The translations under genes and the position numbers were made by a program. A DNA stretch of 64,000 nt from Oscillatoria princeps RMCB-10 (GTDB lineage: Bacteria; Cyanobacteriota; Cyanobacteriia; Cyanobacteriales; Oscillatoriaceae): the NCBI GenBank assembly GCA_019359235.1, contig JAHHHT010000012.1:67648-131647 (forward strand). Reading direction: 5' to 3'. The notes below the pieces were generated by a model. The model searched no databases. It was given only the letters and a program-made list of their open reading frames with translations, and was not told where the DNA came from. Within the stretch, counting starts at the first letter, position 1. Each line of letters begins with the position of its first letter. Of the stretch, positions 30,659 through 47,381 are shown one piece after another.

Positions 30659-33325
30659 ATGAAGAGAAGTAAGCAAATGGCTGAGAATCCAACAGAAATT
30701 CCTCTGACTGCGAGTGGGGTAATTCGCCTGAAGCCCCAGCAGTACATTCACGTTCTGGACAACAACACCGGCGTCACGAGGCTGGAGGTTGGCCCGCAAA
30801 CGATTACGCTTCGCGATCACGAGCGCCTGGTATTAAAACCCTCACCGATGATAATTGTGCCGCCCCGGCATTATTGTGCGGTTGCCAATCCGGTTCTCCG
30901 CAATGATGAGGGCACGCCAGTTGCCGATCAGCACGGCCAAATTAAACTGCGGTACGGCGATCGGGAAATTCGCTTAGCGCAAGATCCTTTTCCCCTGTAT
31001 CCGGGCGAAGCGATCGAGCAAGATGTGACGCGCTTGCACGTCGTGGAGACAAATCAAGCGCTGCGTCTGAGAGCGATTCGGGATTTTTCGGATGCAGTGA
31101 CGGTGACGGTTGAGGGAGAAATTGAGACTCAAACTATCAGCCGTACAGCCGGCGATGAGTGGCTGTTTGAAGGACCGGGAACTTATCTGCCCCGGGTGGA
31201 AGTGGAGGTACTGGAAACTGTGGCGGCTACGGTGATTAAGCCGAACCAAGCTTTGCGCTTGCAGGCGCGACAGAATTGCACGGACCGGCTGGGAAATCGC
31301 CGCCGTGCCGGTGAAGAGTGGCTGGTGAGAGAAGAGGGTGCCTATTTGCCCGGGGTTGATGAAGAAGTGATTGCCATTGTTAAGGCTTACGTTCTGACAG
31401 AGCGGAAAGCGCTGCACTTGAGGGCGAAACGCACTTTTACTGATATTTTTGGCCGGCAGCGGAAAGCTGGCGATGAGTGGTTGGTGACAATCTCGGATGC
31501 AGAGATACACATTCCGGATGTGTATGAAGAAGTGGTGGGAGAAGTTGGGATTACGACTCTGGGCGATCGGGAGTGGTGTATTGTGGTCGATCCGATTGGT
31601 GAGGATGGCAAGCCGCAATTAGGAAAGCGAGAGGTTCGCCAGGGAAGAGCGTCTTTTTTCTCGCATCCGGGAGAGTCGCTGGAAGGGGGCATTCAAAAAG
31701 TCTATGTTCTCGGCGAGCGGGAAGCGCTTTTGCTGCGAGCTAAAGAAGCTTTCAGTGAGGGGGAGGGCGAGAGTGCGGTGGAGCGCCAGCCGGGGGATTT
31801 GTGGATGATTTCCGGTCCGCGAGATTATATTCCCCGCGTGGAAGTGGAAGTGGTTGAGCGGCGCAAAGCGATTCCTCTGGATAAGAATGAAGGCATTTAT
31901 GTGCGGGATATTCAGACGGGTGAACTCAGGCTGGTGAGCGGCCCCCAGGCGTATATGCTCAGCCCGTATGAGGAACTTTGGGAGAAAGAGCTTCCGCCGG
32001 TTGTTGAGGAGTTTCTGGCGCAAAAAACCGATCCTGTTTCTGAGCGCAGCCAGAGTCACAGTACAGGGAGTTCCGAGGCAGGTCAAAAATCTGTAGCCTC
32101 GAAACCTGTCGCTAAACGGGATAAAACTAGGGCGGTTGTTTTTCACGTCCCGCAAAATGCAGCGGTGCAAATCCACGACTATAAAAACCGAAGCGCCCGC
32201 ACTGTATTTGGCCCGGATTTGGTGATGCTGGGACCTGATGAAGCATTTACGGTGCTGAGTTTGTCAGGTGGCAAGCCTAAGCGACCGAATGTGATTAAGT
32301 CGCTGGCTATATTGCTGGGCCCTGATTTTATGACGGATATCTTCATCGTGGAAACATCAGATCACGCCCGACTTCAGATGCAGCTGTCGTATAACTGGTA
32401 TTTTGATGTGGATAGAGCGGATGAGCAAGCTGCTGCAAAACTGTTTCAAGTTCCGGATTTTGTGGGGGATGCTTGCAAGGCGATTGCGTCTCGGGTGCGG
32501 GGCGCTGTGGCGGGGGTGCCATTTGACGAATTTCACCGGAATTCTGCCCGGATTATTCGGGAGGCTGTGTTTGGAACGGATGCGGAAGGTCACGTTCGCG
32601 ATGAATTCCGCTTTCGGGCGAATAATTTGGTGATTACGAACATTGACATCCAGTCTGTGGAGCCGGTGGATGAGCGGACTTTGTCCAGTCTGCAAAAGTC
32701 GGTTCAGATTGCGATTCAAATTACGACGGATGCTCAAGAAGCGGCGGCGAAGCGCGATGCGGAGCGGATTGAGCAAGAGGCTAAAGCTCGACTGGAAAGG
32801 CAGATTATTGTCGATCGGGGTGCGGCTGAGGTAGAGCGGAAAAAGCTGCTGGAATTCCAGGCTGAAAATGCGGCGATTCAGTCTACGGGGCAAGCTATTG
32901 CGGAGGCGAGGGCGAAGGCGGAAGCGGCTCGGATTCAAGGGGAATTGGCTGTGAATATGGCGCAGCAAGAAGCGGAGGCGGCTCGGATTCGGGCTGAAGC
33001 TGATTTGGCGCAGCTGAGAGCGCGTCAGGAGGCGGAGTTGGCTCACCAGCAGGCGCTGGTTAATCTGGAGATTGACAAAGCGGATCGCATGGCTGAAATT
33101 ACCAGTGCGGAATTCGCGCAGAAAGTTGCGGCAATTGGGCCGGAAACGCTGAAAGCTATGGCTCAAGCGGGACCGGAAATGCAGGCGCGGCTTCTGCAAA
33201 GTCTTGGCATTCAGAGTGTGCTGATTACTGATGGGAAAAATCCGATTAATCTGTTTGGCGCTGCTAGCGGTTTGATCGGTTCGGTGACGCCGCCGCTGAG
33301 TTCGGAGCCGCAGCGCGGGGGTTGA
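30659..33325 (+). CDS. Major vault protein (MVP) homologue, full length.
   Basis: The 888-aa product is collinear with, and highly similar to, the eukaryotic MVP consensus. The N-terminus reads …YIHVLDNNTGVTRLEVGPQT…VPPRHYCAVANPV…IRLAQDPFPLYPGE. The repeat domains read AGDEWLFEGPGTYLPRVEVEV…AGEEWLV…AGDEWLVT. The shoulder reads IPLDKNEGIYVRDIQTGE…FGPDLVMLGPDEAFTVLSLSGGKPKRP…FVGDACKAIASRVRGAVA. The cap-helix reads …EAAAKRDAERIEQEAKARLERQ…GPEMQARLLQSLGIQSVLITDG. The alternative start is the Met at 30677. Confidence 0.9.
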   Translation: MKRSKQMAENPTEIPLTASGVIRLKPQQYIHVLDNNTGVTRLEVGPQTITLRDHERLVLKPSPMIIVPPRHYCAVANPVLRNDEGTPVADQHGQIKLRYGDREIRLAQDPFPLYPGEAIEQDVTRLHVVETNQALRLRAIRDFSDAVTVTVEGEIETQTISRTAGDEWLFEGPGTYLPRVEVEVLETVAATVIKPNQALRLQARQNCTDRLGNRRRAGEEWLVREEGAYLPGVDEEVIAIVKAYVLTERKALHLRAKRTFTDIFGRQRKAGDEWLVTISDAEIHIPDVYEEVVGEVGITTLGDREWCIVVDPIGEDGKPQLGKREVRQGRASFFSHPGESLEGGIQKVYVLGEREALLLRAKEAFSEGEGESAVERQPGDLWMISGPRDYIPRVEVEVVERRKAIPLDKNEGIYVRDIQTGELRLVSGPQAYMLSPYEELWEKELPPVVEEFLAQKTDPVSERSQSHSTGSSEAGQKSVASKPVAKRDKTRAVVFHVPQNAAVQIHDYKNRSARTVFGPDLVMLGPDEAFTVLSLSGGKPKRPNVIKSLAILLGPDFMTDIFIVETSDHARLQMQLSYNWYFDVDRADEQAAAKLFQVPDFVGDACKAIASRVRGAVAGVPFDEFHRNSARIIREAVFGTDAEGHVRDEFRFRANNLVITNIDIQSVEPVDERTLSSLQKSVQIAIQITTDAQEAAAKRDAERIEQEAKARLERQIIVDRGAAEVERKKLLEFQAENAAIQSTGQAIAEARAKAEAARIQGELAVNMAQQEAEAARIRAEADLAQLRARQEAELAHQQALVNLEIDKADRMAEITSAEFAQKVAAIGPETLKAMAQAGPEMQARLLQSLGIQSVLITDGKNPINLFGAASGLIGSVTPPLSSEPQRGG

Positions 33326-33329
33326 GTTT

Positions 33330-34100
33330 TTGGGTGGGGTGCTCTGTGGCGTTCCCCACCCTACTGGGTGGGGGGGTGGGTTTCCTCGTTCCGGGGCGGG
33401 CACGGTGCCACCGGCACTACTGCCTGGGAACGAGGAAACTTGGGGGTGGGGTTTGAGCCCCCTATTAATTGGCCAACAGCATCTTTCAATCGCCGGGGAG
33501 CTGTAGGGGCGGCCCCCCGTGGCCGCCCTCCTGACACCGATGCACGGGAGCATGCGCCTTATGACATTACCATCCCGCAATTGTGCAATGCCCTTTTGCT
33601 AAGTGTTCCGGAAGGTGCGTTGCCCCAAGAGGGCAACACACCCTACTGTGCTTGGCGTCCCTTCACGGGGGCGGTTTATTATAGCAATCGACAGTCAGTT
33701 GAGGACAGGGCATCTCACTTTCTAGTAGGGACAGGGACAGGCGGGACGCCTGTCCTACGCCTTATATATGAGCGTTTCTCAGATTAGTGTGCTACGGAGA
33801 AACTCGGTAGGGGCGGTCGTGCCGCACCGCTCCTACGAAATCGGGTTTATGGGCCATAGTACATTAAACTGAGAACCGCTATATGTAGGTACGGCGTAAG
33901 CGTTGCGGCGCGTCAGCGCTACTCCCTAGCCTCATGCCCTCAAGGTAAACATGTCCGTGCCCTGGGTGGGTACTGCTATAACCCACCCTACTAGGTTGGG
34001 GAGGTGGGTTACGCTGTGGCGTTCCCCACCCCACTCTATATAGTGCGCTCCGCACGCGCACCTGTTCAGTCCAGAATCAGGCAAAAGTCCCAGCTGCAGC
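33330..34100. repeat. Repeat-rich intergenic block containing several SDR hairpins.
   Basis: The block contains ggtggggtgctctgtggcgttccccaccctac, and ggtgggttacgctgtggcgttccccacccc at ~33985-34030. The motif gggccatagtacattaaactgagaaccgctat at ~33850 also occurs at 1040-1075. Confidence 0.7.
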
Positions 34101-34578
34101 ACAGGACTCGATAAATCGCGCCGGTACAAACCAACCGCGCTAAAACGCGCACGGCTTTGACGCAATAATAAAAAGCGCGTATACATACAGCATTACGCGA
34201 TAAATCGCCTCTTTCCACGAACGAGGGGGATTTATCGCGTCTGTACAAAAGGCTCCCCCGCTGATAATGCAAAAGTGGGATGCTCCCTAATTTACCTCGC
34301 GATCAACAGAGCGCTGCCCTGAATTCGCCACAAGTATGCGGCTATCGGCCCGCTACCGACTCAATAAACAACAAAAACGACATGCGCTTATGGGAATTTG
34401 CTTTGTAATAAAAATCACTTTTTTTCTTAAGTTTTTTTTTATAGGAATTTTCCCGATCTAGGTATAATCTTGGAACTGTGAGCAAATTGACTGACTTAGC
34501 TAACGAATCCCGCATTCACAGCTAAGCCCGAACGCTCGATTTTGCCTGTACTATCGCAGCAAAACTTGCTGAATTACT

Positions 34579-36021
34579 ATGGTTACAATCGCAACAACGA
34601 ACCGGCAGCAACAAAGTATTGACATCCAAGTTGCTCGCAACCTAGCGATCACGACGAATACCGTCCCCCAAATGACGGGGATTACACCCCGGTGGCTGCT
34701 GCACTTCCTGCCGTGGGTGCAAGTGCAATCGGGAACGTACCGCGTCAACCGCACCAAAGTCGTTCTCAAACCAACTCCAAAAGTTAAGGTCAATAACAGC
34801 AACGGCTCCTCGAATGTGGCCCCTGAAGACCTGCGGACAATCCCCATCCTGTCAGACCTCGCTACTTCTGACGCTGCCGCGCTCGCCAATCGCTTTCAAA
34901 GCCAGTCTTTTGGGATGGGAGAAACTATAGTTGCGGAAGGTCAAAAAGACGACAAATTCTATATCGTCGCTCAAGGGAAATTAGAAGTGTTAATGCGGGG
35001 CGAACAAGGCTACCCCTTGCGCCTTGCCGTTCTGGGTGCGGGAGACTACTTCGGCGAAGTCGATCTCTATCAAGATCTGCCCAGCGACGCCACTGTTCGC
35101 ACACTGACTCCCTGCCGGTTGCTGACGCTTTCCAAAACCTGCTTCGACCAAGTGGCGAGTCAATCCCCACAAGTGCTGGAAAACTTGCGGCAGGCGGTTG
35201 AAAATCGCATGCGGTTAAAGACGCTCCTCAACCTGTACGGGGAAGAAAAAGTTGCGCTCGCCGCTGACTACGAAGGCGAAACTGAGTTACCCGCCTCGTT
35301 TGTGGACTACGAAAACGAACCGCAAGAGTACGAACTGAGTATCGTCCAAACTATTTTGCGCGTTCACACCCGCGTCGCCGACATTTACAACGAGCCGATC
35401 GATCAGTTGCGCGAACAGCTTCGCCTGACTGTCGAAGGCATGAAAGAGCAGCAAGAATGGGAAATTATCAACAACCCTGCCTTTGGCTTGCTGAACGCCG
35501 CCGCGCCCTCAATGCGCGTTCAGCCCCGCTACGGTGCGCCGACTCCCGACGATCTCGATGAAATGCTGGCTCGCGTGTGGAAACAACCGGCTTTCTTCCT
35601 GGCTCACCCACGGGCGATTGCAGCTTTCGGACGCGAATGCACGCGCCGGGGCGTTCCGCCGGTAACTGTGAATCTGTTCGGCTCTCCTTTCATAACCTGG
35701 CGCGGTGTGCCAATTGTGCCCTGCGACAAATTGGAAGTGCAAAATCGCACCGGCAACCCCGAAGGTCCAGGCAAAACGAATATCCTGCTCGTGCGTGCCG
35801 GTGAAAAAGAACAAGGCGTTGTCGGCTTGCATCAAATGGGCATTCCCGGCGAACAAATGCCCAGCCTGTCTGTGCGGTTCATGGGCATCAACATCCAGGC
35901 GGTGGCTTCTTATTTGATGACGCTGTACTTCTCCTGCGCTGTCTTAACCGATGACGCTCTAGCCGTGCTGGAAAACGTGGAGGTGGGATACTACCATGAC
36001 TATCAATATGCCAGCGCATAA
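34579..36021 (+). CDS. Family 2B encapsulin shell protein (HK97-fold nanocompartment) with an inserted cNMP-binding domain.
   Basis: The 480-aa product has an internal CRP-like cNMP-binding domain reading …[28 protein letters not shown]…[11 protein letters not shown]…[11 protein letters not shown]. The C-terminal HK97-like region reads [21 protein letters not shown]…NILLVRAG…[14 protein letters not shown]. The stop overlaps the next gene by 26 nt. Confidence 0.8.
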
Positions 36022-37915
36022 CGGTAAAAACGGACATGGGACGGCTCAAGACGTGCCATTACCTCCCACCGGCGACAGTGGGATGTTTGACCCGATCTCT
36101 GTAGAATCGATGGCGAATCAGTTTTATACCGCTGTGCCGAATGCTCTCAGCGTGGCAGCCCCAACCGGCACCCAGCCTGCAATTGACAATATCGGGACTG
36201 TTCCGCAGCCTGAGAGGAATAGTTCTGGCATGAGTGGGGTGGCATTAGTCGGGAACTCCGCACCGGCATCAGCCCTCAGCGAGGAAGCATTAACCGCAAT
36301 GGCTAAACAGTTGCGCTCGCAGATGGTTCCCGCTAATTTGGAAGCTAACCTGTTTCAGGCATTCGCACAGATCAAACCCGCTGCCCCCTCGCAGGAAACG
36401 GCTGCGGCGCTGCCAACAACTTCGGCTTCCAGCAATGCCTTGAATGTGGAAGCTTTGAAAGAGGCGGCACAACAGCTGTACGCCCAGATTCCTCAGATTT
36501 CCCCCAGCGGAATTCCGGGCAATTCGATTGCCACGCCTCCAAAGCCAACTTCTATTTTACCGCTCAGCGAGCCAGATTTGCAAAGGGCTTTCGCGGATGC
36601 GGGAGCGCAAGCCAGCCATTCTCCGGTTCGGGAAACACCTCAGCCGTCGTTCTATTTCCTGTCTCCCCCAGCAGTGGAAAATCTGGGGTTAGAGTCTGGG
36701 GCTGTATTTGATGTCAGCGCCATCCGCAAAGACTTTCCGATTTTGCACCAGAAAATCAACGGCAAACCGCTGATTTGGCTGGATAACGCCGCCACAACTC
36801 AAAAGCCGCAAAGCGTTATCGATGCCCTGTCGCTGTTCTACCAGCGAGACAACTCCAACATTCACCGGGGCGCTCACACTCTGGCGGCGCGGGCGACGGA
36901 TGCTTATGAGGGAGCGCGGGAAAAGGTACAGCGGTTTATCGGTGCGGGTTCGGCGTCGGAAATTATCTTCGCACGGGGAACCACAGAAGCGATTAATCTG
37001 GTGGCGCAAACCTGGGGTCGCAAGTATATCCAGCCCGGAGATGAAATTGTTCTCTCGACGCTGGAACACCACGCCAATATCGTTCCGTGGCAGATGTTGG
37101 CGCAAGAGACGGGGGCAATTTTAAAGGTTATCCCTGTTAGCGATAGCGGCGAAATTATGCTGGAGGAATACGCCGGACTTCTCGGACCGCGCACTCGCAT
37201 TGTTGGGATTACGCAGGTTTCTAACGCTCTCGGAACAATTGTTCCAGTGCGGGAAATGACGCAAATAGCCCACCGGCACGGGGCAGTCGTCCTTGTTGAC
37301 GGGGCGCAGGCTGTTTCTCACATGCCGGTTAATGTTCAAGAGATCGGTTGCGATTTTTACACCTTTTCTGGTCACAAACTCTTTGCGCCAACGGGAATTG
37401 GTGTCCTGTACGGGAAACGGCAAATCCTGGAGGATATGCCTCCTTGGCAGGGTGGCGGCAGCATGATTCGCCATGTCACGTTCGAGAGAACGATTTACAG
37501 CGATCCCCCGGCAAAATTTGAAGCGGGAACGCCTAATATTGCTGATGCGGTTGGACTGGGTGCGGCGATCGACTATATCACCCGCCTGGGGATGAGCAAT
37601 ATCGAACGGTACGAGCACAAACTCACCGAGTATGCAATAGAACGCCTCGCGCAGATTCCGGGGTTGCGTCTAATTGGTACTGCACCTCACAAAGTAAGCG
37701 TGGTGTCGTTTATTTTGGATGACATCCCTGTGGAACAAGTTGGGCAGCGCCTCGCCCGAGAAGGGATTGCGGTGCGTGCAGGTCATCACTGCGCTCAACC
37801 GACGATGCAGCGGTATAATCTGACGGGTACGGTTCGGCCTTCGCTGGCTTTTTACAACACTTGTCACGAAATCGATACGCTAGTAGAAGTCCTGCGGACA
37901 ATTCGCTTCCGCTAG
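35996..37915 (+). CDS. SufS/CsdA-type cysteine desulfurase with a ~215-aa disordered N-terminal extension (the putative encapsulin cargo-loading domain).
   Basis: Residues 1 to ~215 are low-complexity and rich in Ala, Pro, Ser and Gln. They are followed by a class V aminotransferase/SufS core reading …[11 protein letters not shown]…HRGAHTLA…[13 protein letters not shown]…[17 protein letters not shown]…RAGHHCAQP, which supplies the PLP-binding lysine and the active-site Cys loop. Confidence 0.85.
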
Positions 37916-38157
37916 CTGGAATTGTCCGCACAAGGGGACAGCATAAATGTCCCCTCACCCACCCCAACTTTCTCGACCACAAGGGGAGAGGGGGAGCTGC
38001 TGCCTCGGATCTTTTTTAGCACAAATAAAGAGAGCATCAAGAAACCTGGTTTCTAGGAATACCCATGTTAGGCTTAATTGTGCCGGACTACTGTTCGAGT
38101 CCGAGCGGATCTCTGTTTTAGGGGAGGGGCGGGTTTATTAGAACCCTTCTCTATGGT

Positions 38158-38276
38158 GAGCATCCCGATTATGTAGGGGCGAAGCATGAGGGCGAATAAT
38201 CTCTCGGTCAAAACCAGCAATTGATAATCCTCAGGCTTCGCCCTCACCAGGGTAGTTTCAAAAACGGGATGCTCCC
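38158..38276. mobile_element. MITE-like element (copy 2), bounded by GGGAGCATCCC/GGGATGCTCCC.
   Basis: It is ~95% identical to the copy at 7522-7642. Confidence 0.75.
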
Positions 38277-38607
38277 TCTCTGTACCACACATATTTCGGG
38301 GGAACCCGCCCCTACAGATATAGAAAATCGGGAACGAACGGACACGATATTGTCCCGCTTTTCCTCAAGGCAGGGCAAGCTCCAAGGGAGCATTAGTAAG
38401 CAAGGTAACTCAAGTTGCTACCTACAAGTCTAAGCATCTAGATCCCCCCAAACGGGGCGGGCAAGGTGCCACCGGCACTACAAAGGGGGGCTTTGAGAAT
38501 GTCCCCCCCCTTTTGAAGGGGGGCTAGGGGGGGATCTCCACGCTCGTACTGCTAAGTAGCAACTTGGGTTAAGATAAGTGGACTGATTTACTGGAGGTAA
38601 TCGGAAA

Positions 38608-39453
38608 GTGCTGATCGAGAACGCTCAACCCACGACTGAAGTAGCCCAAAACAGCCAGACAGCCAAGTATCCTGACGCCTCCTCACGAGGAGAGAGTTTT
38701 CGCCCAGTCAAAGCTAACCCTATCGGTGTTTTAATCGCTGATTGGCAAACGATTTATCAGCGCGATCCTGCCGCCCGCAACTGGCTGGAGGTGCTGTTGT
38801 GCTACCCTGGATTGCACGCTCTGTGGTGCCATCGCGTAGCGCACTGGCTGCACGGTTTAGGCATTCCTTTTCTGCCTCGTTTCCTGTCTTTCTTAAGTCG
38901 GTTATTCACGGGAATTGAGATTCACCCGGGTGCTAAAATTGGCAAAGGGGTGTTTATCGACCACGGGATGGGAGTGGTGATCGGCGAGACTGCAGTTGTC
39001 GGCGACTATGTGCTGATTTATCAGGGAGCGACCCTGGGGGGGACGGGAAAGGAAAAGGGCAAGCGCCATCCGACACTAGGGAATAATGTCGTTGTGGGAG
39101 CGGGGGCGAAGGTACTGGGCAATATTAAGATTAGCGATAACGTTCGCATCGGTGCGGGTTCGGTTGTGCTGCGGGATGTGCCGAGCAACAGTACGGTGGT
39201 GGGGGTTCCGGGGCGCATCACTCGTCTGAATGGGTTGAGGGCTGATGCTCTGGAGCATAACAACCTGCGGGATGTGGAAGCTGAGGTGATTCGCGCTTTA
39301 TTTGAACGGGTGAAGGAGCTTGAGAAACAGGTTGTGGAGTTGCAAGGTCAATTCAATTTGCCCCCCATGCCGGTGGATAGCGAAAAAACGGAGAGCGAAA
39401 AGTGTTATTCTAATGGGGTGATTGAAGACTTTCTCGATGGGGCTGGAATTTAA
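38608..39453 (+). CDS. cysE: Serine O-acetyltransferase.
   Basis: The product has hexapeptide left-handed beta-helix repeats reading [44 protein letters not shown]…[30 protein letters not shown]. The CysE N-terminal helical domain is present. Confidence 0.8.
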
Positions 39454-39471
39454 GAATTCCAGAGGGTTCAA

Positions 39472-39900
39472 ATGACAGAGTTTAACTGGGTTCGCGGCTT
39501 GCTGGGCGGTTTGCTCATCGGCACGAGTGCGACTGTCCTGCTGGCATTCAACGGTCGGATCGCTGGGATTAGTGGAACGCTCAACAGCGCCCTCAGTTCA
39601 GCGTCTGATGGAGTCTGGCGCTGGCTTTTTCTGGGCGGACTGCTGGCGGGGGGGGCACTCTATGAATATGTCCTCGCACCGGCACCGACACCGGCATCTG
39701 AGTTCGCTCCCTGGGCGATGCTCGCCGGCGGCTTTCTGGTGGGCTTCGGGACGCGCATGGGTAATGGCTGCACCAGCGGACATGGGGTGTGTGGGTTGGG
39801 CAGGCTTTCGCTTCGCTCGCTGGTGGCAGTTCTGACTTTTTTGGGCACTGCAATCGTCACGGTTTTCGTGACGCGCCATGTGCTTTTATGGTCTACCTGA
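39472..39900 (+). CDS. YeeE/YedE-family (Sulf_transp) membrane protein, half A.
   Basis: The product has four TM segments and the conserved motif GTRMGNGCTSGHGVCG. Confidence 0.75.
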   Translation: MTEFNWVRGLLGGLLIGTSATVLLAFNGRIAGISGTLNSALSSASDGVWRWLFLGGLLAGGALYEYVLAPAPTPASEFAPWAMLAGGFLVGFGTRMGNGCTSGHGVCGLGRLSLRSLVAVLTFLGTAIVTVFVTRHVLLWST

Positions 39901-39912
39901 GTGAGGGAAAGA

Positions 39913-40003
39913 AGCGATTTATCGCGGATATACAAGAGGGGGAGACGCGATTCATCGCGTCTCTACAAGAGGGGGTAGACGCGATTTATCGCGTCTCTAC
40001 AAG
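39913..40003. repeat. Three tandem ~30-33-bp units, each containing the palindrome GACGCGAT-TT-ATCGCGTC.
   Basis: The tandem array reads agcgatttatcgcggatatacaagaggggg, then agacgcgattcatcgcgtctctacaagaggggg, then tagacgcgatttatcgcgtctctacaag. Related copies lie at 34108-34130, 34196-34208 and 34225-34252. Confidence 0.8.
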
Positions 40004-40005
40004 AT

Positions 40006-40455
40006 TTGGATTTGGGAAAGAATATGAAACAAAATCTGGTTGCTTTGATTTCAGGTGTGCTGTTTGGTCTGGGTTTGGGTCTTTCCCAGATGATTGACCG
40101 AGAGCGGGTTATCGGTTTTTTGGATGTCACCGGCGTTTGGGACCGGACGCTGCTGTTCGTACTGGGCGGGGCTGTTGGGGTGACGGTGATTGCGTTCCGT
40201 TTTGTGTTGCGCCTCCCGCACCCATTATATGCGGAAAAGTTCTACGTTCCCACTCAGAAAAATATCGACAGAAAGCTGATATTGGGGGCGGTTATTTTCG
40301 GTGTCGGTTGGGGAATTGCTGGATACTGCCCCGGACCGGGCCTCACGGGGCTGGTGCTGGGCATCTGGAATCCCGTGTTGTTTGTAATCGCGATGATTGC
40401 CGGTTCGCTGACTTACAAATGGTTTTCGACTCGGTTTGAGGGGGAAATGGAATAA
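40006..40455 (+). CDS. YeeE/YedE-family membrane protein, half B.
   Basis: The product has four TM segments and the motif GVGWGIAGYCPGPG. Confidence 0.75.
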   Translation: MDLGKNMKQNLVALISGVLFGLGLGLSQMIDRERVIGFLDVTGVWDRTLLFVLGGAVGVTVIAFRFVLRLPHPLYAEKFYVPTQKNIDRKLILGAVIFGVGWGIAGYCPGPGLTGLVLGIWNPVLFVIAMIAGSLTYKWFSTRFEGEME

Positions 40456-40600
40456 AAGAATTAGAGTTGTGGGGTGCGTTACCGCTCGGAACGGCACCCT
40501 ACTGATTCTCGTTACCAGCCGGAGCCTGGGAACGAGGAAAGGGAGAGGAAAGAGGGAAAGGGAAAAAATCGATATGTAGCGTTTTTTAAGGAAAAGGTAT

Positions 40601-42754
40601 ATGAACGATGTCGTTCTGAACCTGACTATTTATCCCTGTGATATTGCCATAATTGGAGGCGGCTTTAGCGGCTGTCTGGTTGCAGCAAATCTTTTGCGGG
40701 ATGCAACCGTGCCGGTGGTGATTAAGTTGATTGAACGGAGTCCGGAAGTAGGCAGAGGAGTGGCTTACGGGACGCAAATATCCTGTCATTTGCTTAACGT
40801 GCCGGCGGGGAAGATGAGTGCGTTTGCGGATGAACCGGCTCACTTCCTGAACTGGTTGCAAAGGAACGGGTATGCTGACAGTACAGCATCCTCTTTCATC
40901 CCGCGTCAGGTTTATGGGGATTATGTGCGGGCACTGTTGAAGGAAGCGGAAACAAATGCTCGGGCTGGTGTGCGGTTGCAGCGGATTGTGGGGGAAGCGG
41001 TTGCGCTGGAAACGACAGCAACCGGCATCAGGGTGTACCTGAAAGACGGTGAGTGTTTGTGCGTTCAAAAGGCTGTGCTAGCGCTGGGAAATTTCCCGGC
41101 ATCTCTGCCCGAACCGCTTGCCGGTCTGGAGAACTTCGACCGCTATCTGAGAGATGGCTGGGAAGCTGATGCGGTTGCCGGTCTGAATCCAGACGATTCT
41201 ATTCTGGTGGTGGGCACCGGCTTGACGATGGTCGATGCGGTTGCTACTTTGCACCAAAAAGGATTTCAGGGGAAAATATATGCCGTCTCGCGTCACGGTT
41301 TGATGCCTGCCGGTCACAAACTAACAAGTCATTATCCAGCATTTATTGAGGCAGATACTGCACCAATAAATGCGCGAGAATTACTTCATTTAGTGCGTCT
41401 AGAAGTGCGAGCGGCGGTGGCGCAGGGGCACGACTGGCGTGCGGTAATCGACGCACTCCGCCCAGTCACGAAACAACTTTGGCAAGCACTTCCATTGCAG
41501 GAACAAAAGCGATTTTTGCGCCACGTCAAGGCTTACTGGGAAGTGTGCCGGCATCGCATTGCTGAAGAAATGGCAAATCTGCTGGATGCGACAGTGCAGT
41601 CGGGTCAACTGAAGCATTATGCCGGTCGGATTCAAAGCTGTCGGGAGTTGGAGAATCGGGTGGCTGTGACGATTCGGGAACGGGGGAAGCAAACGGAGAA
41701 AGTGTTCTTGGTCAGCCGGATTCTGAACTGCACCGGCTCAAACTGTAACTATCGCAAGTTGCAGCACCCCTTGCTCGCCAGCTTGCAAGAACAAAAGCTG
41801 ATCCGCTTCAACGAGCTGTCAATCGGAATCGACACGGCTCCAAACGGTGCTCTAATCGATGCAAACGGAAAGGTATCGGAATTGCTGTACACTTTGGGAA
41901 CACCCCGCAAGGGCAATCTTTGGGAAACTATAGCCGTTCCCGAAATTCGGGTTCAGGCTGCTTCTCTGGCGCAGGAACTGCTAAAATCCCTCAATCCCAA
42001 AGCCGATACTCCTGTTGCGGGGGATTGGTGTGCTGGAAATCTATCGCTCGCGTTACAGAAATCTACTATGCTATTGCGTCAACTGTTCGATAAAGAATCG
42101 AGTACCTACACTTATCTGATTGCCGATTTCTCTACCAAAGCAGCCATCCTAGTCGATTCTGTATTGGAACAAGTGGAACGGGATCTCCAGCTGTTGCGAG
42201 AGTTGGATCTCACCCTGCGCTATTGCCTGGAAACCCACATCCATGCCGACCACATCACCGGCACAGACAAGCTGAGGACACTTACGGGCTGTCTGGCTAT
42301 TTTGCCGGAAAATACTGAGGTGACTTGTGCGGATGGCTATATGGCGGATGGGAAGATTTTGCAACTGGGAAGCTTACAGATCCGCGCCATTGCCACCCCC
42401 GGTCATACTGACAGCCATAATGCTTATCTTATCGATGGCATTTACCTGTTAACCGGAGATGTGCTGCTGATCCGGGGTTGCGGTCGTACTGACTTTCAGA
42501 ATGGCAATGCCGGTTTGCTGTATGATGCTGTAACGCAGAAGTTATTCACGTTACCGGATGACACTTTGGTGTATCCCTGTCACGATTATAAGGGGCAAAC
42601 AGTGTCTACTATTGGGGAAGAAAAGTGCTGGAATTCCCGGTTGGCGGGGCGCAATCGCAGCCAGTTCATCGAGCTAATGAATAATCTCAATCTGCCCTAT
42701 CCCAAAAAGATGCTGGAATCTGTATCCGCCAATCAGCGCTGCGGTCAAATTTAA
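40601..42754 (+). CDS. Fusion protein with an N-terminal FAD/NAD(P)-binding (NAD_binding_9-like) domain and a C-terminal ETHE1-type persulfide dioxygenase (metallo-beta-lactamase fold).
   Basis: The N-terminus has a Rossmann GGGFSG dinucleotide motif. The C-terminus has HIHADH (HxHxDH) and TPGHTDSH metal ligands and the PDO-specific GRTDFQ motif. It is 717 aa. Confidence 0.75.
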   Translation: MNDVVLNLTIYPCDIAIIGGGFSGCLVAANLLRDATVPVVIKLIERSPEVGRGVAYGTQISCHLLNVPAGKMSAFADEPAHFLNWLQRNGYADSTASSFIPRQVYGDYVRALLKEAETNARAGVRLQRIVGEAVALETTATGIRVYLKDGECLCVQKAVLALGNFPASLPEPLAGLENFDRYLRDGWEADAVAGLNPDDSILVVGTGLTMVDAVATLHQKGFQGKIYAVSRHGLMPAGHKLTSHYPAFIEADTAPINARELLHLVRLEVRAAVAQGHDWRAVIDALRPVTKQLWQALPLQEQKRFLRHVKAYWEVCRHRIAEEMANLLDATVQSGQLKHYAGRIQSCRELENRVAVTIRERGKQTEKVFLVSRILNCTGSNCNYRKLQHPLLASLQEQKLIRFNELSIGIDTAPNGALIDANGKVSELLYTLGTPRKGNLWETIAVPEIRVQAASLAQELLKSLNPKADTPVAGDWCAGNLSLALQKSTMLLRQLFDKESSTYTYLIADFSTKAAILVDSVLEQVERDLQLLRELDLTLRYCLETHIHADHITGTDKLRTLTGCLAILPENTEVTCADGYMADGKILQLGSLQIRAIATPGHTDSHNAYLIDGIYLLTGDVLLIRGCGRTDFQNGNAGLLYDAVTQKLFTLPDDTLVYPCHDYKGQTVSTIGEEKCWNSRLAGRNRSQFIELMNNLNLPYPKKMLESVSANQRCGQI

Positions 42755-42769: not shown

Positions 42770-42855
42770 GGGGTGGGTTACGCTGTCGCCAACCCACCCT
42801 ACTTTTCTTTGGGGGGGTGGGTTACGCTGTCGCTAACCCACCCTACTTTTCTTTA
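42770..42855. repeat. Direct duplication of a ~39-bp SDR hairpin between convergent genes.
   Basis: The unit ggtgggttacgctgtcgc(c/t)aacccaccctacttttcttt occurs twice. Confidence 0.85.
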
Positions 42856-45800
42856 GACAAAATCAAGTTGAGGACGTTCAGCTCACTGGAAGTGAGGAGG
42901 TATTTGTCGGTAAAGATTTTTTCCCTCATTTCTTCTAGGCTGTAGCTCCTGAAGATAAGAAAGGGGAATTCCCCGTACTTGCGACCGATGGGCAGGGTGT
43001 TGTATGCTGGGTAAAGGGAGTGGACATACTTGGACATAAGCGTGCGAAATTCGGTGTCTTCTTCCTCTTCTGGATTGGTTTTGAAATAGTCCCGCATCGC
43101 CTCACCGGCAATAAAGGCAAACAGTGGCAAAGCATAATACTGATCGTCTCTCTGGCTGCTCTGCTCAAACCACTGAGTTCGGCTGACTTCGCCGCTGAGC
43201 AATTTCACCAGCTCCATCGCGCCACCCCTGATGGCGGTGCGCAGGTTTTCCGGGTACTCCTGGCGGTGGCTAATCGCCCGCATTTTGGCGATCAGTTCGG
43301 GGGTGGCGTGCTTTCTGATCTGCTGTTCCAGTCGAATTTGGTAAGTTTCTTCCAGGGTTTTCTCACCCACCGGCACCACCAGCAAGCTGCCACTAATGTG
43401 CCCCGCTTCTATGTTACCATAATCTAGCAATTTGTCAAGGCTTCGGCACATCTGGGAAAACTGCCGGTTGAACAGCTCCCGCAAGGAAAGATAGGAAAGC
43501 TTTTCAGAAACCCGGTTTCTTGGAGAAACCGGGTTTCTCGATGTGGCTGGATTGAGCAAGGTGAATTCGGCGCGGCTCAGAATTTCCTGCAAACTGGTAT
43601 AAACCTGCTGGAGCACCAGGTAGCTGGGACGACGGCGGTGTTCGTTCTTCAGTTCTCGGATTAGATTAGTCATCTGACCGGTAAAGGTATCACCGGCTGC
43701 TGACACAGACTTCCCGCCGATAGGAATCATCATAAACTCTTTCCTCCCCAGACGCCAAGCCCCCACAATCCGCGTCATCACGGAAACCTTGAGAATCAGC
43801 AAGATATTTAACAAACTTAAGACGCTCTCCTGGATGGAAAGCTGGCGCTCTTTGGCGTAGTCCTCAAAGGAAGTATCGCGCTCTTTGGGGTAATATAGCG
43901 CTCTATCGTACAAGTAAAAAATCAGCTCCTTGTCTTCGCCGTCGAGAGTCTTGCTTTCCCCATTTTCCCGATATTCCCCACGCGCTCTGTAGATAACCTG
44001 GATGACTTCCATCAGGTTTCTCTCCACCTGGAAGCGGGGAATTTCCGCCAGGATGCGCTTCGCCTTGGGAAAAGACAGCCCCCGACTCGCGGAAGATGTC
44101 ATAAAGACTACCTTGACATGATTCTTGTGCTGGTGTATGTTTTTCTTAGCCTCCTCGGAGAGATTGGCGTGGATTTCCAGGTAGTCCTGATTTTCCGTAA
44201 ACTCTCCCCACTGCTTCCGAAGTTTCTCAATTAGCTCCTGCAATCTCTTTTTGTCCTGGATGTACACCAGCAGCTGACTGGCGTCTGGATTTTCCAAGTA
44301 GGCGCTGATGTCCTCGGCTATCTTTGACTGTACGGCTTTCACCAAGCTGTTCCCTTTGTCTGAAACCGCCTCCTCGCTGTATTTCAAGCACTCGACAAAC
44401 ACCTTATAGGTGATTGACAAACTGCGAGCGGGATAGGAGTTGGCGTTGATGGCGATAGCACCGGCTCTCTTAAACGGAAACCGCGACACAGAAAGAGGCG
44501 CTGCGGTTTGTTTCGCCATCCGGAAATAGATTTTGTCCGGTTCCGGTGAGGCTTCCGAGAGGTGCTGGGTGATAACTTCTGGCTCAACAATAGAGGCGTC
44601 GGCGACAATGACTTTGGTGTTGAAGCCGTGCTGCGCTAGCTGAAAGCGGTGCAAAAATTGGCTGATTCCTTTCAGGAAGTTGACGCCGCTATCGTCGCCG
44701 GTGATTTCGTCTACCATGATAAAGACGTGCTTTATCCTTTGCGAGATTTTGCGCATCTCGGAGCCAATGACTTTCCCCTCGCGCTTATTGTAAGCACGTT
44801 TGAAGATTTTGTCAAGGTGATCTAGGGTGTTGGCTCCATTGGGGGTGATCCGCAAAGACTGGATGGAGACTGTGGCGACAATATTATTGTATTTCCTGCT
44901 GTCGATGAGGGCGTGGATTCCTTCGCAGATGCTAGCTAGTACGCCGGCGGTTCGCTCGCCAATATCTCGAAATGTGTCTTCGGTTTCCCTCTGGAGGCGC
45001 TTCTGGCGCGTGTTCGTAGTAGGGGCTTTAGCCCCTCCCGTAGCGTTGAGGAAGTGGACGGACTTGGCGGTAAAATCATCCTGGCGCTGATTAGAATGAT
45101 ACTCGACTGTGGGTTTTCCGCCGTTTTCTTTGATGATGCTGGCGTTGGTGTTGATGCAAAACAGCCGGCTGTCGGACAGTTTGTCGGTGTCTGGGGATTT
45201 GAATTTCTCGATGATGTCTAGGTTAACTTGTTTGCGGGGACTGACGTAGAAGAACAAAAACCCCTCGTCGATGTGAGCTTGCAGAAAGTTGGCGATGGCT
45301 GTGGTTTTGCCAATTCCGGGATTGCCGGTTAAAAATATATAGGTATCGTCCGAAACCAGCGCCTTTCTGATAAGTTCGGCGTGAGCGTCTCTCAGGTGGG
45401 ATTTGGGACTGATGTCTAGCTGCGCTGCTAACTCAGCCGGTATAATATCTATAGAGTTGAGAAAGCCATCCATCCGCTCGGTGTGAAGGACTTCTGCAAT
45501 TCCGTCCTCTCTGAGGCTGAGAGGTTTTTCTGACAGCGACTCGACGAACTTCTTCCCCTCATTAAAACTCCGAGTGGCATTTTGCTGGATAATCCCTAAA
45601 ACCTGCCGGCGAGCGGTGTTGATTTCCTGTTTATCACGTTGATTTTTGTAAATCTGCGCACAAGTTGCCAGTACGTTTAAGTTTTCCGGGCGCAGGGACA
45701 TGGCGCTGATGCCCCGGTCACTGTACCCAACTGCATTAAACACCACCGGCGCACTTTCTGTCAAGATGCCGGTTTGTCGCAGAAATCCATAGAAGCTGTG

Positions 45801-46580: not shown

Positions 46581-46668
46581 GTTTTCCTGCTTTGCGGCGT
46601 TTATTATTGTACTACAATAGGATGTCGGTGCGACCTACCGCACCGCAACTATTATTGGACAAACTTTT

Positions 46669-47184
46669 TTAGCTGACCGGGGACATTGTGGGGGCGGGAG
46701 CGCAGTATTTTGATGCCGGGATAAAGCTGCGATCGTCTTCAGTATCTACCTGAAGAGAAAACGACACACTTTCTATTTCCCAGTCTACCCAGGCTAGCGG
46801 ATTATTGTAAATACCCTCCAGTTCAAACAAGGTTACGGGTTCATCTACAGGGAAGAAATCTTCAATGACAGTTGGCGGCTGTTTTTTGGGGGGGACGTAG
46901 TTATTAGAACCTGGCGGATCTTCAACATACTCAGCGATCTGCAGCACGGATTTCTTCACGCCGGTGAAAATGCAGAGGCATTTTTGCCAGAAAATCAGCT
47001 CATCCGTTGGATTTAGAGGATGGCCAGGAAGAATTCCGATATTGCGAGTCTCGATTAAAAGCTGCCACTGGTCGAACCTAAAGCCCTCTCCCTGTTTAAA
47101 AGTTATGGTCTTTTGCAAGCTCCAGTCTTCCAAGTCACACTCTGTAAAGTGGAGGTAATCGAAATAATTACTGACAGTATTCAT
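46669..47184 (-). CDS. Hypothetical protein, the middle gene of the cassette.
   Basis: The ORF is ~171-180 aa with no recognised motif. It lies co-directionally between the two large genes with short gaps. Confidence 0.5.
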   Translation of the reverse strand: MNTVSNYFDYLHFTECDLEDWSLQKTITFKQGEGFRFDQWQLLIETRNIGILPGHPLNPTDELIFWQKCLCIFTGVKKSVLQIAEYVEDPPGSNNYVPPKKQPPTVIEDFFPVDEPVTLFELEGIYNNPLAWVDWEIESVSFSLQVDTEDDRSFIPASKYCAPAPTMSPVS

Positions 47185-47381
47185 CCTACCTTCTCCCAAA
47201 TTGTATAGCAATAGACAGCCAGTTGAGGATATTGGGTCGGAAGGAACGCCTGTCCTATGAAGGATAGGCGTAGGGCAGGCGAGACGCCTGCCCCCAAGGT
47301 CTAATGTTCTAACCTAAATGGCTGTTGCTATAGTCCTTCCCCCTTGGGGGGGGTAGGGCTAAAGCCCTACTACGAACCTTT

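Follow-up and report, generated by a model that had tools for sequence, protein, structure and literature searches.

The locus examined here raises the question of how six sulfur genes, lying on the + strand of a 64-kb stretch of the Oscillatoria princeps RMCB-10 genome (hereafter the window), belong together: as one operon, as cooperating modules or merely as neighbours. They code for an encapsulin, a desulfurase, CysE, the half-size proteins YedE1 and YedE2, and a fusion of a flavoprotein with a persulfide dioxygenase (PDO). Each member of the set is a sulfur gene, as a first-pass annotation had proposed, and its account of which genes are present, in what order, on which strand and with which ends was borne out exactly, as were the motifs HIHADH (aa 546-551, 42236-42253) and GRTDFQ (aa 628-633, 42482-42499) of the fusion. 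The locus is real and probably functional. Annotated neighbours in the window, namely CobK, a pentapeptide protein, a major vault protein homologue, a helicase-like protein and PheT, are unrelated to sulfur.

Table 1. Features of the sulfur locus, in positions of the window.
Feature	Position	Strand	Remarks
Candidate -10 promoter element TATAAT	34463..34468	+	read from sequence, ~110 nt before encapsulin start codon
Family 2B encapsulin shell protein, 480 aa	34579..36021	+	HK97-type SrpI-like domain, cNMP-binding domain inserted
Encapsulin cargo cysteine desulfurase, 639 aa	35996..37915	+	SufS-type PLP domain, aa ~237-637
Non-coding spacer, 692 bp, dispersed repeats	37916..38607		three terminator-like hairpins
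Serine O-acetyltransferase cysE, 281 aa, GTG start	38608..39453	+	TIGR01172, Hexapep
yedE1, half-size YeeE/YedE gene	39472..39900	+	Sulf_transp, C-terminal half of profile
Three tandem ~33-nt palindromic repeats, core GCGATTTATCGCG	39905..40004		fill yedE1-yedE2 spacer
yedE2, PmpB/YedE2-like half-size YeeE/YedE protein (DUF6691)	40006..40455	+	N-terminal half of profile
Flavoprotein–PDO fusion, 717 aa	40601..42754	+	NAD_binding_9 1.5e-39, Lactamase_B 1.6e-12
YdhS/COG4529-type FAD/NAD(P)-binding flavoprotein, FzmM-like fold	40601..41995	+	fusion N-terminal domain, aa 1-465
Type I (ETHE1-like) PDO	42065..42754	+	fusion C-terminal domain, aa 489-717
Two tandem 41-nt palindromic repeats	42770..42854		family D2, copies 98% identical

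The shell protein scored 598 bits against NCBIfam NF041163 (encap_f2b; cut-off 400), and Pfam placed the SrpI-like family (PF19307, 1.2e-116) at aa 215-470 and cNMP_binding (PF00027, 8e-19) at aa 109-195; homologues with 71-96% identity are found in filamentous cyanobacteria. Its gene overlaps that of the desulfurase by 26 nt, an overlap kept in L083, L084, L086, L088 and L089. The desulfurase matched Aminotran_5 in Pfam (6.4e-150) and both f2_encap_cargo1 (815.6, cut-off 800) and sufS (575, cut-off 475) in NCBIfam, and its translation shows SGHK and GHHCA motifs. The N-terminus is a low-complexity, Ala/Pro/Ser-rich loading region of ~235 aa, for which the Pfam search returned no family match. 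CysE exceeded the TIGR01172 cut-off (250 against 210.65 bits; Hexapep 6.7e-14), and its GTG lines up with the ATG start of L001 and L083. In desulfurase encapsulin operons, of which 199 are known for family 2B, the accessories with the strongest enrichment are serine O-acetyltransferase and rhodanese (PMC8346489), and Hexapep adjoins 56% of family 2a shell genes (PMC8049743 supplement). Family 2A desulfurase encapsulins, the only shells for which elemental-sulfur storage has been demonstrated, show a ~10-fold rise under sulfur limitation (PMC10836720).

The YeeE/YedE pair had been assigned to thiosulfate, a role that its type does not favour. YedE1 matched PF04143 (8.3e-08) over profile positions 214-309 of 310, and its Cys100 and Cys107 (GNGCTSGHGVCG) are invariant across five loci. 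YedE2, which has 149 aa if it starts at a TTG and 143 aa if at the ATG at 40024 (its homologues begin at MKQNL), matched PF20398 (6.2e-43) and, at profile positions 22-103, PF04143; its single Cys (GYCPGP) is invariant. PmpB likewise resembles the N-terminal and PmpA the C-terminal half of YeeE (PMC11582611), and YedE1E2 requires one Cys per half and acts together with PDO (PMC10812762). With only 23 bits against NCBIfam TsuA (cut-off 400), the pair is by sequence assignable to the PmpAB/YedE1E2 type and not to the full-length TsuA/YeeE type. Pairs of this type import zero-valent sulfur, feeding PDO (PMC10812762, PMC11582611); for YedE1E2, import and not export has been demonstrated. Uptake of zero-valent sulfur was accelerated by the split pair but not by full-length YedE3 (PMC10812762), whereas thiosulfate is carried by full-length YeeE family members (PMC11582611). 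A yeeE-yedE-pdo2 operon is present in A. baumannii (PMC7315123). Cyanobacteria contributed just one or two YedE1/2 genes to a published survey (PMC10812762).

The fusion that follows had been considered unusual, yet full-length versions form more than 120 protein clusters (90% identity) across cyanobacteria. In phmmer searches of the PDB, its C-terminal domain matched Myxococcus xanthus PDO (4ysb, 1.3e-77), human ETHE1 (4chl, 3.6e-62) and BpPRF (5ve3, 4e-61). A metal-ligand alignment, which the first-pass annotation had named as able to refute its proposal, did not do so: all ETHE1 ligand positions are present and invariant in 60 homologues (conserved residues H546, H602, D620, C627, R629, H661, D662 and C714), and the domain is a complete ETHE1-type PDO with intact metal ligands; NCBIfam Blh gave 94 bits (cut-off 625). 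A linker with pLDDT <50 (aa 465-488) joins it to the flavoprotein. Structurally, the latter comes closest to the NADPH/O2-dependent class B monooxygenase FzmM, a fold that speaks against the suggested coupling of persulfide oxidation to a reductase step. The flavoprotein carries a helical insert with invariant Arg and His residues, and its only near-invariant Cys, C377, lies inside an 'ATG-type' motif of the dinucleotide fold. Elsewhere, this family sits in sulfur-scavenging clusters: its alternate fusion partners are PDO, a CDO_I (cysteine-dioxygenase-type) cupin and rhodanese, and its neighbours include sulfate and sulfonate binding proteins, CysK, MetY/MetX-like and SsuD/SsuE-like genes, TauD, TauE and two-domain rhodanese genes. 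The literature searched reports no substrate for any family member.

Taken together, we favour, at slightly better than even confidence, the view that two known sulfur modules have been joined here and together manage a pool of zero-valent sulfur. The first would be a family 2B desulfurase encapsulin operon of shell, desulfurase cargo and serine O-acetyltransferase, in which, by homology with family 2A, the enclosed desulfurase would take sulfur off cysteine and deposit it in zero-valent form; induction by sulfur limitation would be expected. [quoted passage not shown] A small anionic sulfur compound that the dioxygenase produces or consumes, with sulfite, sulfinate and persulfide as candidates, could undergo an NADPH-dependent oxygenation or some other redox reaction on the flavoprotein domain. 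As a whole, the locus would deposit sulfur from cysteine, import or recover sulfane sulfur and convert it to assimilable sulfite, with serine O-acetyltransferase supplying O-acetylserine for cysteine re-synthesis. Points against this explanation include the following: turning reduced sulfur into sulfite under sulfur starvation is energetically odd, and nothing supports a physical link of YedE1E2 to a cytoplasmic capsid. If it holds, the importer, the PDO and the flavoenzyme fusion become testable candidates for the recovery of encapsulin-stored sulfur.

The distal module could instead serve not acquisition or remobilisation, but a BigR/CstR-like detoxification of reactive sulfur species, directed against sulfane sulfur or sulfide leaking from the desulfurase, with the flavoprotein further oxidising toxic sulfite or sulfinate. 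Sulfur nucleophiles are commonly oxygenated by class B flavin monooxygenases, and sulfate is bound at the flavin site of FzmM. Proteobacterial yedE1E2-pdo units are persulfide-induced detoxification operons (PMC7315123, PMC10812762). Stand-alone cyanobacterial PDOs neighbour an ArsR-type regulator, rhodanese-YgaP and TauE. However, the window holds no ArsR/BigR-type regulator, TauE or rhodanese, and the fused PDO and the stand-alone flavoprotein occur in sulfur-scavenging contexts, not in ArsR-PDO-TauE clusters. We therefore regard detoxification as an unlikely main role, albeit one that is compatible with joint management of the zero-valent sulfur pool.

Still less likely, in our estimate, is a single operon forming a direct line, as the first-pass annotation had envisaged, in which desulfurase persulfide is oxidised to sulfite by the PDO, YeeE/YedE moves thiosulfate and the flavoprotein adds a reductase step. 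The common strand and the two tight junctions (-26 and 18 nt), together with the intact PDO ligands, agree with such an arrangement; sulfite and sulfane sulfur also form thiosulfate spontaneously (PMC7042703), which full-length YeeE members transport. The gaps are not uniformly short, though: in order, the junctions measure -26 (an overlap), 692, 18, 105 (123 if yedE2 starts at the ATG) and 145 nt. The 692-bp spacer between the desulfurase gene and cysE contains terminator-like hairpins at 38091-38108, 38131-38146 and 38340-38355, holds no ORF >72 aa and shares repeat copies (families D3, D4 and D8) with the region upstream of encapsulin; the corresponding spacers of L001 and L083 (388-421 bp) align poorly with it. 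Owing to this repeat-filled spacer and its hairpins, two or more transcripts are likely and a single operon unlikely, and the 105-145-bp gaps further argue against tight co-transcription; the units would probably be at least two, enc-cyd and cysE-yedE1-yedE2-fusion. Moreover, a direct flow of persulfide from desulfurase to PDO is purely conjectural. By prediction the desulfurase sits inside the shell, where a cytosolic PDO would have no free access to its persulfide (PMC10836720). The type of the split pair, the monooxygenase relatives of the flavoprotein and its lone near-invariant Cys likewise disfavour the direct line.

As for control elements, the window holds no sulfur regulator, although Rrf2 genes flank encapsulin in L089 and L090, and a conserved operator was sought upstream and not found; both points weigh against the favoured view. 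A consensus scan of the + strand found no full -35/-10 site. The TATAAT at 34463, which may act as a promoter element, has TATAGT as its aligned counterpart in L001 and L083, ahead of a conserved block. The GCGATTTATCGCG motif occurs in six copies in 64 kb (0.07 expected), all within 34107-34239 or 39914-39993, and in none of the related loci. The 41-nt repeats begin 16 bp past the fusion stop codon, the second overlapping the 3' end of a convergent helicase-like ORF by 12 bp, and mark the 3' edge of the locus.

Synteny in other cyanobacteria, a check that the first-pass annotation had suggested, supported the grouping in part. All six genes are present in L001 and L083 (shell identity 92%), and the same arrangement without cysE in L084 and L085 (82%); L089 (73%) reads enc-cyd-cysE-DUF1830-yedE1-yedE2, followed by a convergent stand-alone YdhS, and L090 (71%) enc-cyd-yedE1-yedE2. 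In filamentous cyanobacteria, the YedE pair and the flavoprotein come repeatedly after the encapsulin-desulfurase core, while L086 and L088, two of the seven related encapsulin lineages, hold enc-cyd-cysE only, restricting the link to a sub-lineage. The YedE pair has separate links of its own too, adjoining a stand-alone PDO in L022, L025 and L077 and a stand-alone YdhS plus CysE in L066. Flanking genes of L001 are missing from the window; recurrence of the block in diverged relatives with different flanking genes indicates an arrangement beyond chance. An IS630-like fragment adjoins the block in L001 and L083. Among 12 full-length-fusion loci from a genome scan, 11 lack encapsulin, desulfurase, cysE and the YedE pair alike over a distance of 10 kb, and the twelfth (L013), whose sequence reaches just 5.6 kb upstream, has none in that part; association with encapsulin is therefore a matter of lineage and not a general property of the fusion. 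That the sulfur genes merely drifted together in a repeat-rich region, without functional interaction between the modules, would suit the long repeat-filled spacers, the IS630-like fragment, the mostly encapsulin-free fusion and the close relatives lacking the distal genes, but is very improbable, because selection for linkage, not drift, is expected where five of seven lineages (shell identity 71-100%, three arrangements, differing flanks) have the transporter pair after the desulfurase and four of them the flavoprotein, fused or alone, once as a separate convergent gene.

Both modules that we propose to be joined are of published types, encapsulin–desulfurase–acetyltransferase operons and yedE1E2–pdo units; in the literature consulted, the one is not reported beside the other. 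With SrpI of Synechococcus elongatus PCC 7942 and the Acinetobacter baumannii 118362 CD encapsulin, the window shares an SrpI-like HK97-type shell, and with family 2 CD encapsulin operons a SufS-type desulfurase cargo with a long disordered N-terminal loading region and an accompanying serine O-acetyltransferase gene, a combination that is one of the four published CD-operon types (PMC10836720, PMC8346489, PMC8049743). The characterised CD encapsulins, however, are of family 2A, whereas the shell here is of family 2B with a cNMP-binding insert, and its operon lacks a rhodanese gene and adds the YedE1E2 pair and the flavoprotein-PDO fusion, neither of which is among the accessories given in the CD encapsulin literature consulted. 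As in the yedE1-yedE2-pdo/pmpAB-blh modules (Cupriavidus pinatubonensis YedE1E2, Serratia PmpAB, the A. baumannii BigR operon, Agrobacterium blh), adjacent ~140-aa half-YeeE genes, the C-terminal-half type preceding the N-terminal-half type and both having a conserved Cys close to residue 100, are followed by a PDO gene; unlike them, the module has a cyanobacterial host and no ArsR/BigR regulator, and its ETHE1-like PDO is fused to a 465-aa flavoprotein instead of being stand-alone or rhodanese-fused. The flavoprotein shares a Pfam family and the source annotation 'uncharacterized NAD(P)/FAD-binding protein YdhS' with E. coli YdhS (COG4529), for which the literature searched reports no function. 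Its likeness to the aspartate N-hydroxylases FzmM/CreE (class B flavoprotein N-monooxygenases, PF13454) is one of architecture, with just 20% identity to FzmM, a helical insert about half the size and a genomic context of sulfur scavenging instead of natural-product nitrogen chemistry. The C-terminal domain of the fusion, finally, aligns over its full length with human ETHE1 (4chl), Arabidopsis ETHE1 (2gcu), M. xanthus PDO and BpPRF (E 1e-77 to 4e-61), and the type I PDO motifs HxHxDH, PGH, TGD, GCGRTDFQ, HDY and the C-terminal RCG are all kept; but where BpPRF carries a C-terminal rhodanese, the PDO of this locus is partnered by an N-terminal FAD/NAD(P) flavoprotein.

The six plus-strand open reading frames of the locus lie where the first-pass annotation had placed them, running from the shell gene enc through cyd (cysteine desulfurase, CyD), cysE, yedE1 and yedE2 to a gene whose product fuses a flavoprotein of the YdhS/COG4529 type to a type I, ETHE1-like persulfide dioxygenase (PDO). 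The gaps between them, previously described as short, actually measure -26, 692, 18, 105 and 145 nt. Among the annotated neighbours, CobK, a pentapeptide protein, a major vault protein homologue, a helicase-like protein and PheT have no link to sulfur. The vault protein homologue, a bacterial relative of the eukaryotic protein, is encoded directly upstream of the encapsulin locus, placing two types of large protein-cage genes side by side, an adjacency that is not kept in the related locus L001.

Features of the locus and its surroundings
Feature	Position (nt)	Strand	Characteristics
Group II intron	21746-21824, 21841-23052	-	Rfam domain V/VI match, 63.9 bits; adjacent ORF with reverse transcriptase, maturase and HNH endonuclease
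Major vault protein homologue	30659-33325	+	888 aa; Vault repeats 7e-71, MVP shoulder domain 6e-55, Vault_2/3/4; no NCBIfam match
Short G-rich palindromic dispersed repeats	33333-34041, 38453-38547, 42770-42854		Several families, in spacers bounding and dividing the locus
Palindrome GCGATTTATCGCG, three copies	34107-34239		340-470 bp upstream of enc
-10-like TATAAT	34463-34468		Found by eye; TATAGT at the aligned position in two relatives; a conserved leader comes next
enc, predicted family 2B encapsulin	34579-36021	+	SrpI-like PF19307 1.2e-116, 248/254 profile positions; NF041163 encap_f2b 598 bits (cut-off 400)
cyd, cysteine desulfurase	35996-37915	+	SufS-type PLP enzyme; Aminotran_5 6e-150; NF041166 815.6 bits (800)
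Inverted repeat pair	38406-38449 with 38528-38571		MITE-like in look
cysE	38608-39453	+	TIGR01172 250 bits (equivalog cut-off 210.65)
yedE1, half-size YeeE/YedE gene 1	39472-39900	+	142 aa; PF04143 (Sulf_transp) profile positions 214-309, C-terminal half
Palindrome GCGATTTATCGCG, three copies	39914-39993		Three tandem ~33-nt hairpin-forming repeats filling the yedE1-yedE2 spacer
yedE2, half-size YeeE/YedE gene 2	40006-40455	+	149 aa; PF04143 positions 22-103, N-terminal half; PF20398 (DUF6691) 6e-43
Flavoprotein-PDO fusion	40601-42754	+	717 aa; N-terminal NAD_binding_9 1.5e-39, C-terminal metallo-beta-lactamase domain
P-loop/STAND-like NTPase	42843-46580	-	1245 aa; helicase C-terminal domain
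Two proteins	46669-47211, 47382-50393	-	180 and 1003 aa; no Pfam or PADLOC match

The shell protein combines an SrpI-like HK97 domain with a predicted cNMP-binding domain (Pfam PF00027, 8e-19, aa 109-195), an internal domain that separates family 2B from family 2A encapsulins (PMC8346489), and on this domain composition it is assigned to family 2B. The desulfurase scores 575 bits against the NCBIfam sufS model (cut-off 475) and carries an Ala/Pro/Ser-rich N-terminal region of ~235 residues (aa 1-235) without a Pfam match; with its SufS-type domain, this long, disordered, putative loading region and the position of its gene next to that of the shell, it has the predicted properties of a family 2 encapsulin cargo. 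Shell and cargo genes overlap by 26 nt, and the overlap is kept in five related loci, consistent with translational coupling. The encapsulin half of the locus belongs to an operon type already described. Family 2 encapsulins that have a desulfurase as cargo outnumber every other encapsulin class, and four operon layouts have been published, Enc-CD-AT among them. For family 2B, 199 desulfurase operons have been catalogued, with serine O-acetyltransferase and rhodanese as the most enriched accessories (PMC8346489), and 56% of family 2a shell genes have Hexapep neighbours (PMC8049743 supplement). In the family 2A system of A. baumannii, crystalline elemental sulfur is stored and sulfur limitation causes ~10-fold induction (PMC10836720).

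Downstream of cysE, the YeeE/YedE pair had been described as moving thiosulfate, an assignment over-extended from the full-length family. YeeE/TsuA proteins comprise ~330-350 aa, with nine helices and three conserved cysteines, against 142 and 149 aa here, and the TsuA model NF052577, whose cut-off is 400 bits, scores 23, so that we rejected this identity. As judged from the profile matches, the arrangement is instead that of PmpA/PmpB, adjacent genes for ~130-145-aa proteins, one matching the C-terminal and the other the N-terminal half of YeeE (Li et al., PMC11582611). Both halves of YedE1E2 are needed in Cupriavidus and Sinorhizobium, with one Cys in each (CpYedE1 C104, CpYedE2 C101). In the window and four relatives, Cys100 and Cys107 of gene 1 and Cys108 of gene 2 are invariant; their equivalence to the Cupriavidus residues was judged by residue number only. 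Since gene 2 homologues begin with MKQNL, gene 2 probably starts at the ATG at 40024, from which Cys108 would be counted as Cys102. A persulfide-responsive yeeE-yedE-pdo2 operon is known (PMC7315123).

The motifs quoted for the fusion protein were found as described, HIHADH at aa 546-551 and GRTDFQ at aa 628-633. In phmmer searches of PDB sequences, its PDO domain matched Myxococcus xanthus PDO (4ysb, 1.3e-77), human ETHE1 (4chl, 3.6e-62) and the PDO-rhodanese fusion BpPRF (5ve3, 4e-61). The alignment to ETHE1 retains HxHxDH, PGH, TGD, GCGRTDFQ (aa 626-633), HDY (aa 661-663) and the C-terminal RCG (aa 713-715). Invariant in 60 homologues, H546, H602 and D620 line up with the corresponding motifs in 4chl and 4ysb; we take them to correspond to H79, H135 and D154 of human ETHE1, the 2-His-1-Asp iron ligands of this metallo-beta-lactamase fold. 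The metal ligands, whose absence would have spoken against the first-pass reading, are thus all in place. The glyoxalase II model (GloB, TIGR03413) scores 97 bits against an equivalog cut-off of 200.8, and the name 'hydroxyacylglutathione hydrolase' given by some sources is therefore probably a mis-annotation. Likewise, we rejected a PDO-rhodanese fusion (Blh/CstB/PRF), as there is no rhodanese domain and the Blh model NF040641 yields 94 bits against 625.

For the flavoprotein domain, we found no close sequence relative among solved structures, nor, in the literature searched, a functional study of YdhS, COG4529 or PF13454 proteins as a family. Modelled with AF2 from an alignment of 50 sequences, aa 1-468 gave a confident structure, with a pLDDT of 90.6 and a pTM of 0.88; in the full-length model, the linker between the two domains (aa 465-488) is disordered. 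The model comprises two dinucleotide-binding domains with a helical domain wedged between them, as in FzmM/CreE-type monooxygenases, and the family profile matches the FzmM structure 8cp2, an aspartate N-hydroxylase, with an E-value of 9e-14. In the profile alignment, a cofactor-free comparison, Trp51 of FzmM, which stacks on the isoalloxazine, and its Asn62, in front of the flavin, fall on the invariant residues Y56 and N66, and its GLGLNFFD motif on GTGLTMVD. In FzmM, which belongs to the classical class B NADPH/O2 monooxygenases, sulfate or aspartate is bound next to the FAD by an Arg cluster of the helical domain (PMC10404684). The helical insert of the flavoprotein (aa 258-333) holds the invariant residues R266, R287, R307, H308, R317 and H318. 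The predicted fold would thus favour oxygenation of an anionic substrate over the reductase step that the first-pass annotation had proposed. Given the sulfur context, aspartate is unlikely to be this substrate.

The strongest clue to the role of the flavoprotein comes from its three independent fusions to sulfur enzymes and from a consistent sulfur-scavenging context. With this domain as query and a limit of E <= 1e-30, the YdhS/COG4529 family, which includes an E. coli member without an assigned function, comprises ~3,300 clusters (50% identity), most of them stand-alone proteins. Searching with the stand-alone flavoprotein of L089, a related encapsulin locus, we found three main architectures: the flavoprotein alone, with a C-terminal PDO, or with an N-terminal cysteine-dioxygenase-type cupin (CDO_I, PF05995; P0262, P0268, P0353 and P0360). 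An exhaustive search added proteins with a C-terminal rhodanese (P0464), an N-terminal amino-acid kinase (P0404) and C-terminal HEAT repeats (P0377). The cupin fusion adjoins genes for SBP56 and SsuA/SsuD-like proteins. In Pleurocapsa minor (L091, 10154-11811), SBP56 and 2Fe-2S ferredoxin genes lie beside it; SBP56 is the methanethiol-oxidase family, and this neighbourhood suggests a thiol-scavenging context. One stand-alone flavoprotein gene adjoins SsuE/SsuD-like genes and two genes of the acyl-CoA-dehydrogenase fold, a fold shared by SfnB, DszC and other oxygenases of sulfones and sulfinates, and an Azospirillum copy adjoins TauD and an ABC transporter. For proteobacterial stand-alone homologues, only recurring, Pfam-supported clusters were counted; ORF calling in high-GC genomes gives antisense artefacts.

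Full-length homologues of the PDO fusion form more than 120 protein clusters at the 90% identity level, 54-95% identical, in Nostoc, Calothrix, Microcystis, Leptolyngbya, Gloeothece and others. A genome scan yielded full-length fusions at 12 loci, besides 38 PDOs and 31 flavoproteins encoded on their own. Encapsulin, desulfurase, cysE and the YedE pair were all missing within 10 kb of the fusion at 11 of the 12 loci, and at the twelfth (L013) within the 5.6 kb upstream, where the sequence ends. The neighbours are instead sulfur-acquisition genes, encoding sulfate- and sulfonate-binding proteins, a two-domain rhodanese, CysK and MetY/MetX-like enzymes, joined by an SsuE-like FMN reductase, TauE, a pair of FAD_binding_2 protein and ferredoxin, and GST. 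The surroundings of stand-alone cyanobacterial PDOs differ from these and hold an ArsR-type regulator, rhodanese-YgaP and TauE. Within the sulfur cluster of the Microcystis fusions, a phycobiliprotein gene pair sits between rhodanese and CysK (L002, 3822-4890; L012, 3926-5003), recalling the sulfur-depleted phycocyanin sets that other cyanobacteria express under sulfur starvation.

Comparison across seven lineages, fetched with the shell protein as anchor and with the window included in all tallies, bore out the expected synteny in part. The whole six-gene set recurs in L001 and L083 (shell identity 92%), while the remaining loci hold partial sets: enc-cyd-yedE1-yedE2-fusion without cysE in L084 and L085 (82%); Rrf2, enc-cyd-cysE-DUF1830-yedE1-yedE2, then a convergent stand-alone flavoprotein gene and a second Rrf2 in L089 (73%); Rrf2 and enc-cyd-yedE1-yedE2 in L090 (71%); and enc-cyd-cysE only in L086 (Floridanema, 77%), there among ssu-like genes, and in L088 (Planktothrix tepida, 74%). 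The YedE pair thus follows the desulfurase in five of the seven lineages, and a flavoprotein is present in four. Layouts vary and the flanking genes are unlike those of the window, which argues that the recurrent linkage is selected and not due to chance. Elsewhere, the YedE pair adjoins a stand-alone PDO (L022, L025, L077) or a stand-alone flavoprotein plus CysE (L066). Genes for Rrf2-family regulators and an acireductone dioxygenase flank the encapsulin locus in L089 (8865-9302, 17187-17624) and L090 (8703-9167). These Rrf2 genes, absent from the window, are candidate regulators of the system; tblastn of the whole 64 kb, queried with the sulfur regulators and partner proteins that the relatives encode, detected no Rrf2, ARD, CysK, TauE, Crp, sulfate-binding protein or rhodanese.

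Upstream of enc, comparison of the seven lineages for a shared operator returned only a T-rich low-complexity word. A sigma-70 promoter scan passed no plus-strand site, and the TATAAT hexamer is a plausible promoter element. The 692-nt spacer between cyd and cysE contains no ORF longer than 72 aa and three terminator-like hairpins, and consists of repeats also found upstream of the encapsulin gene. An Rfam search of the whole window matched nothing within the locus, so no riboswitch accounts for the long spacers. With at most one mismatch, six copies of the 13-nt palindrome GCGATTTATCGCG are present in the 64 kb, where 0.07 would be expected, and their two sites in the locus looked operator-like. 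None of the related loci contains the palindrome, so we rejected it as an operator and regard it as a probable genome-specific repeat that may form intercistronic RNA hairpins. Examples of the dispersed repeats in the locus spacers are GGGCGGGCA[C/A]GGTGCCACCGGCACTAC and GGGGTGGGTTACGCTGTCGC..AACCCACCC. Beyond the fusion gene, the genes at 42843-50393, where PADLOC gave only marginal matches (Avs1b and PDC-S73, E about 5e-4), may constitute an uncharacterised defence or NTPase system.

With the gene identities, motifs, fold and recurrent linkage established, we can outline how the products might cooperate. By analogy with homologues, for which these steps are established, the desulfurase would deposit S0 inside the shell, YedE1E2 would hand zero-valent sulfur to cytoplasmic thiols, the PDO would convert glutathione persulfide to sulfite, and CysE would supply O-acetylserine. 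Sulfur storage is known for family 2A shells only, and the shell in the window is of family 2B. The distal module would then recover or import sulfane sulfur as assimilable sulfite, with the flavoprotein using NADPH to oxygenate a sulfur anion or to change its redox state, and all steps would form a single zero-valent-sulfur economy under sulfur-supply control. However, YedE1E2 is an importer without a known link to a cytosolic capsid, sulfur oxidation during sulfur starvation looks costly, and a regulator is absent from the window. That the genes serve detoxification is a serious rival, albeit one compatible with storage and recovery. We consider it rather unlikely, and propose it in that spirit, that the flavoprotein is an unrecognised sulfur-oxygenating or oxyanion-handling NADPH enzyme paired with Fe(II) sulfur dioxygenases, and that YedE1E2 and the fused PDO remobilise stored encapsulin sulfur to sulfite. 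Such a flavoprotein-dioxygenase tandem would account for the independent fusions to PDO, cysteine-dioxygenase-type cupin and rhodanese.

How the crystalline elemental sulfur stored in encapsulins is recovered has been left open (PMC10836720). More than 1,400 operons are known for the widespread desulfurase encapsulins, and the locus and its relatives offer compartment-linked candidates for this recovery: a zero-valent-sulfur channel, a persulfide dioxygenase and an uncharacterised flavoenzyme. If remobilisation were true, the locus would represent a complete store-and-retrieve sulfur organelle system in this cyanobacterial clade. The YdhS/COG4529 family, in turn, gains a specific and testable sulfur context from its scavenging clusters, its fusions to three sulfur enzymes and a class B monooxygenase fold with a putative anion-binding helical domain. 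The value of the finding thus lies in candidate remobilisation genes tied to a sulfur-storing compartment and in the sulfur context given to a widespread flavoprotein family. The locus itself is real and was for the most part well read at first pass; it is a variant of known systems rather than a new kind of system.
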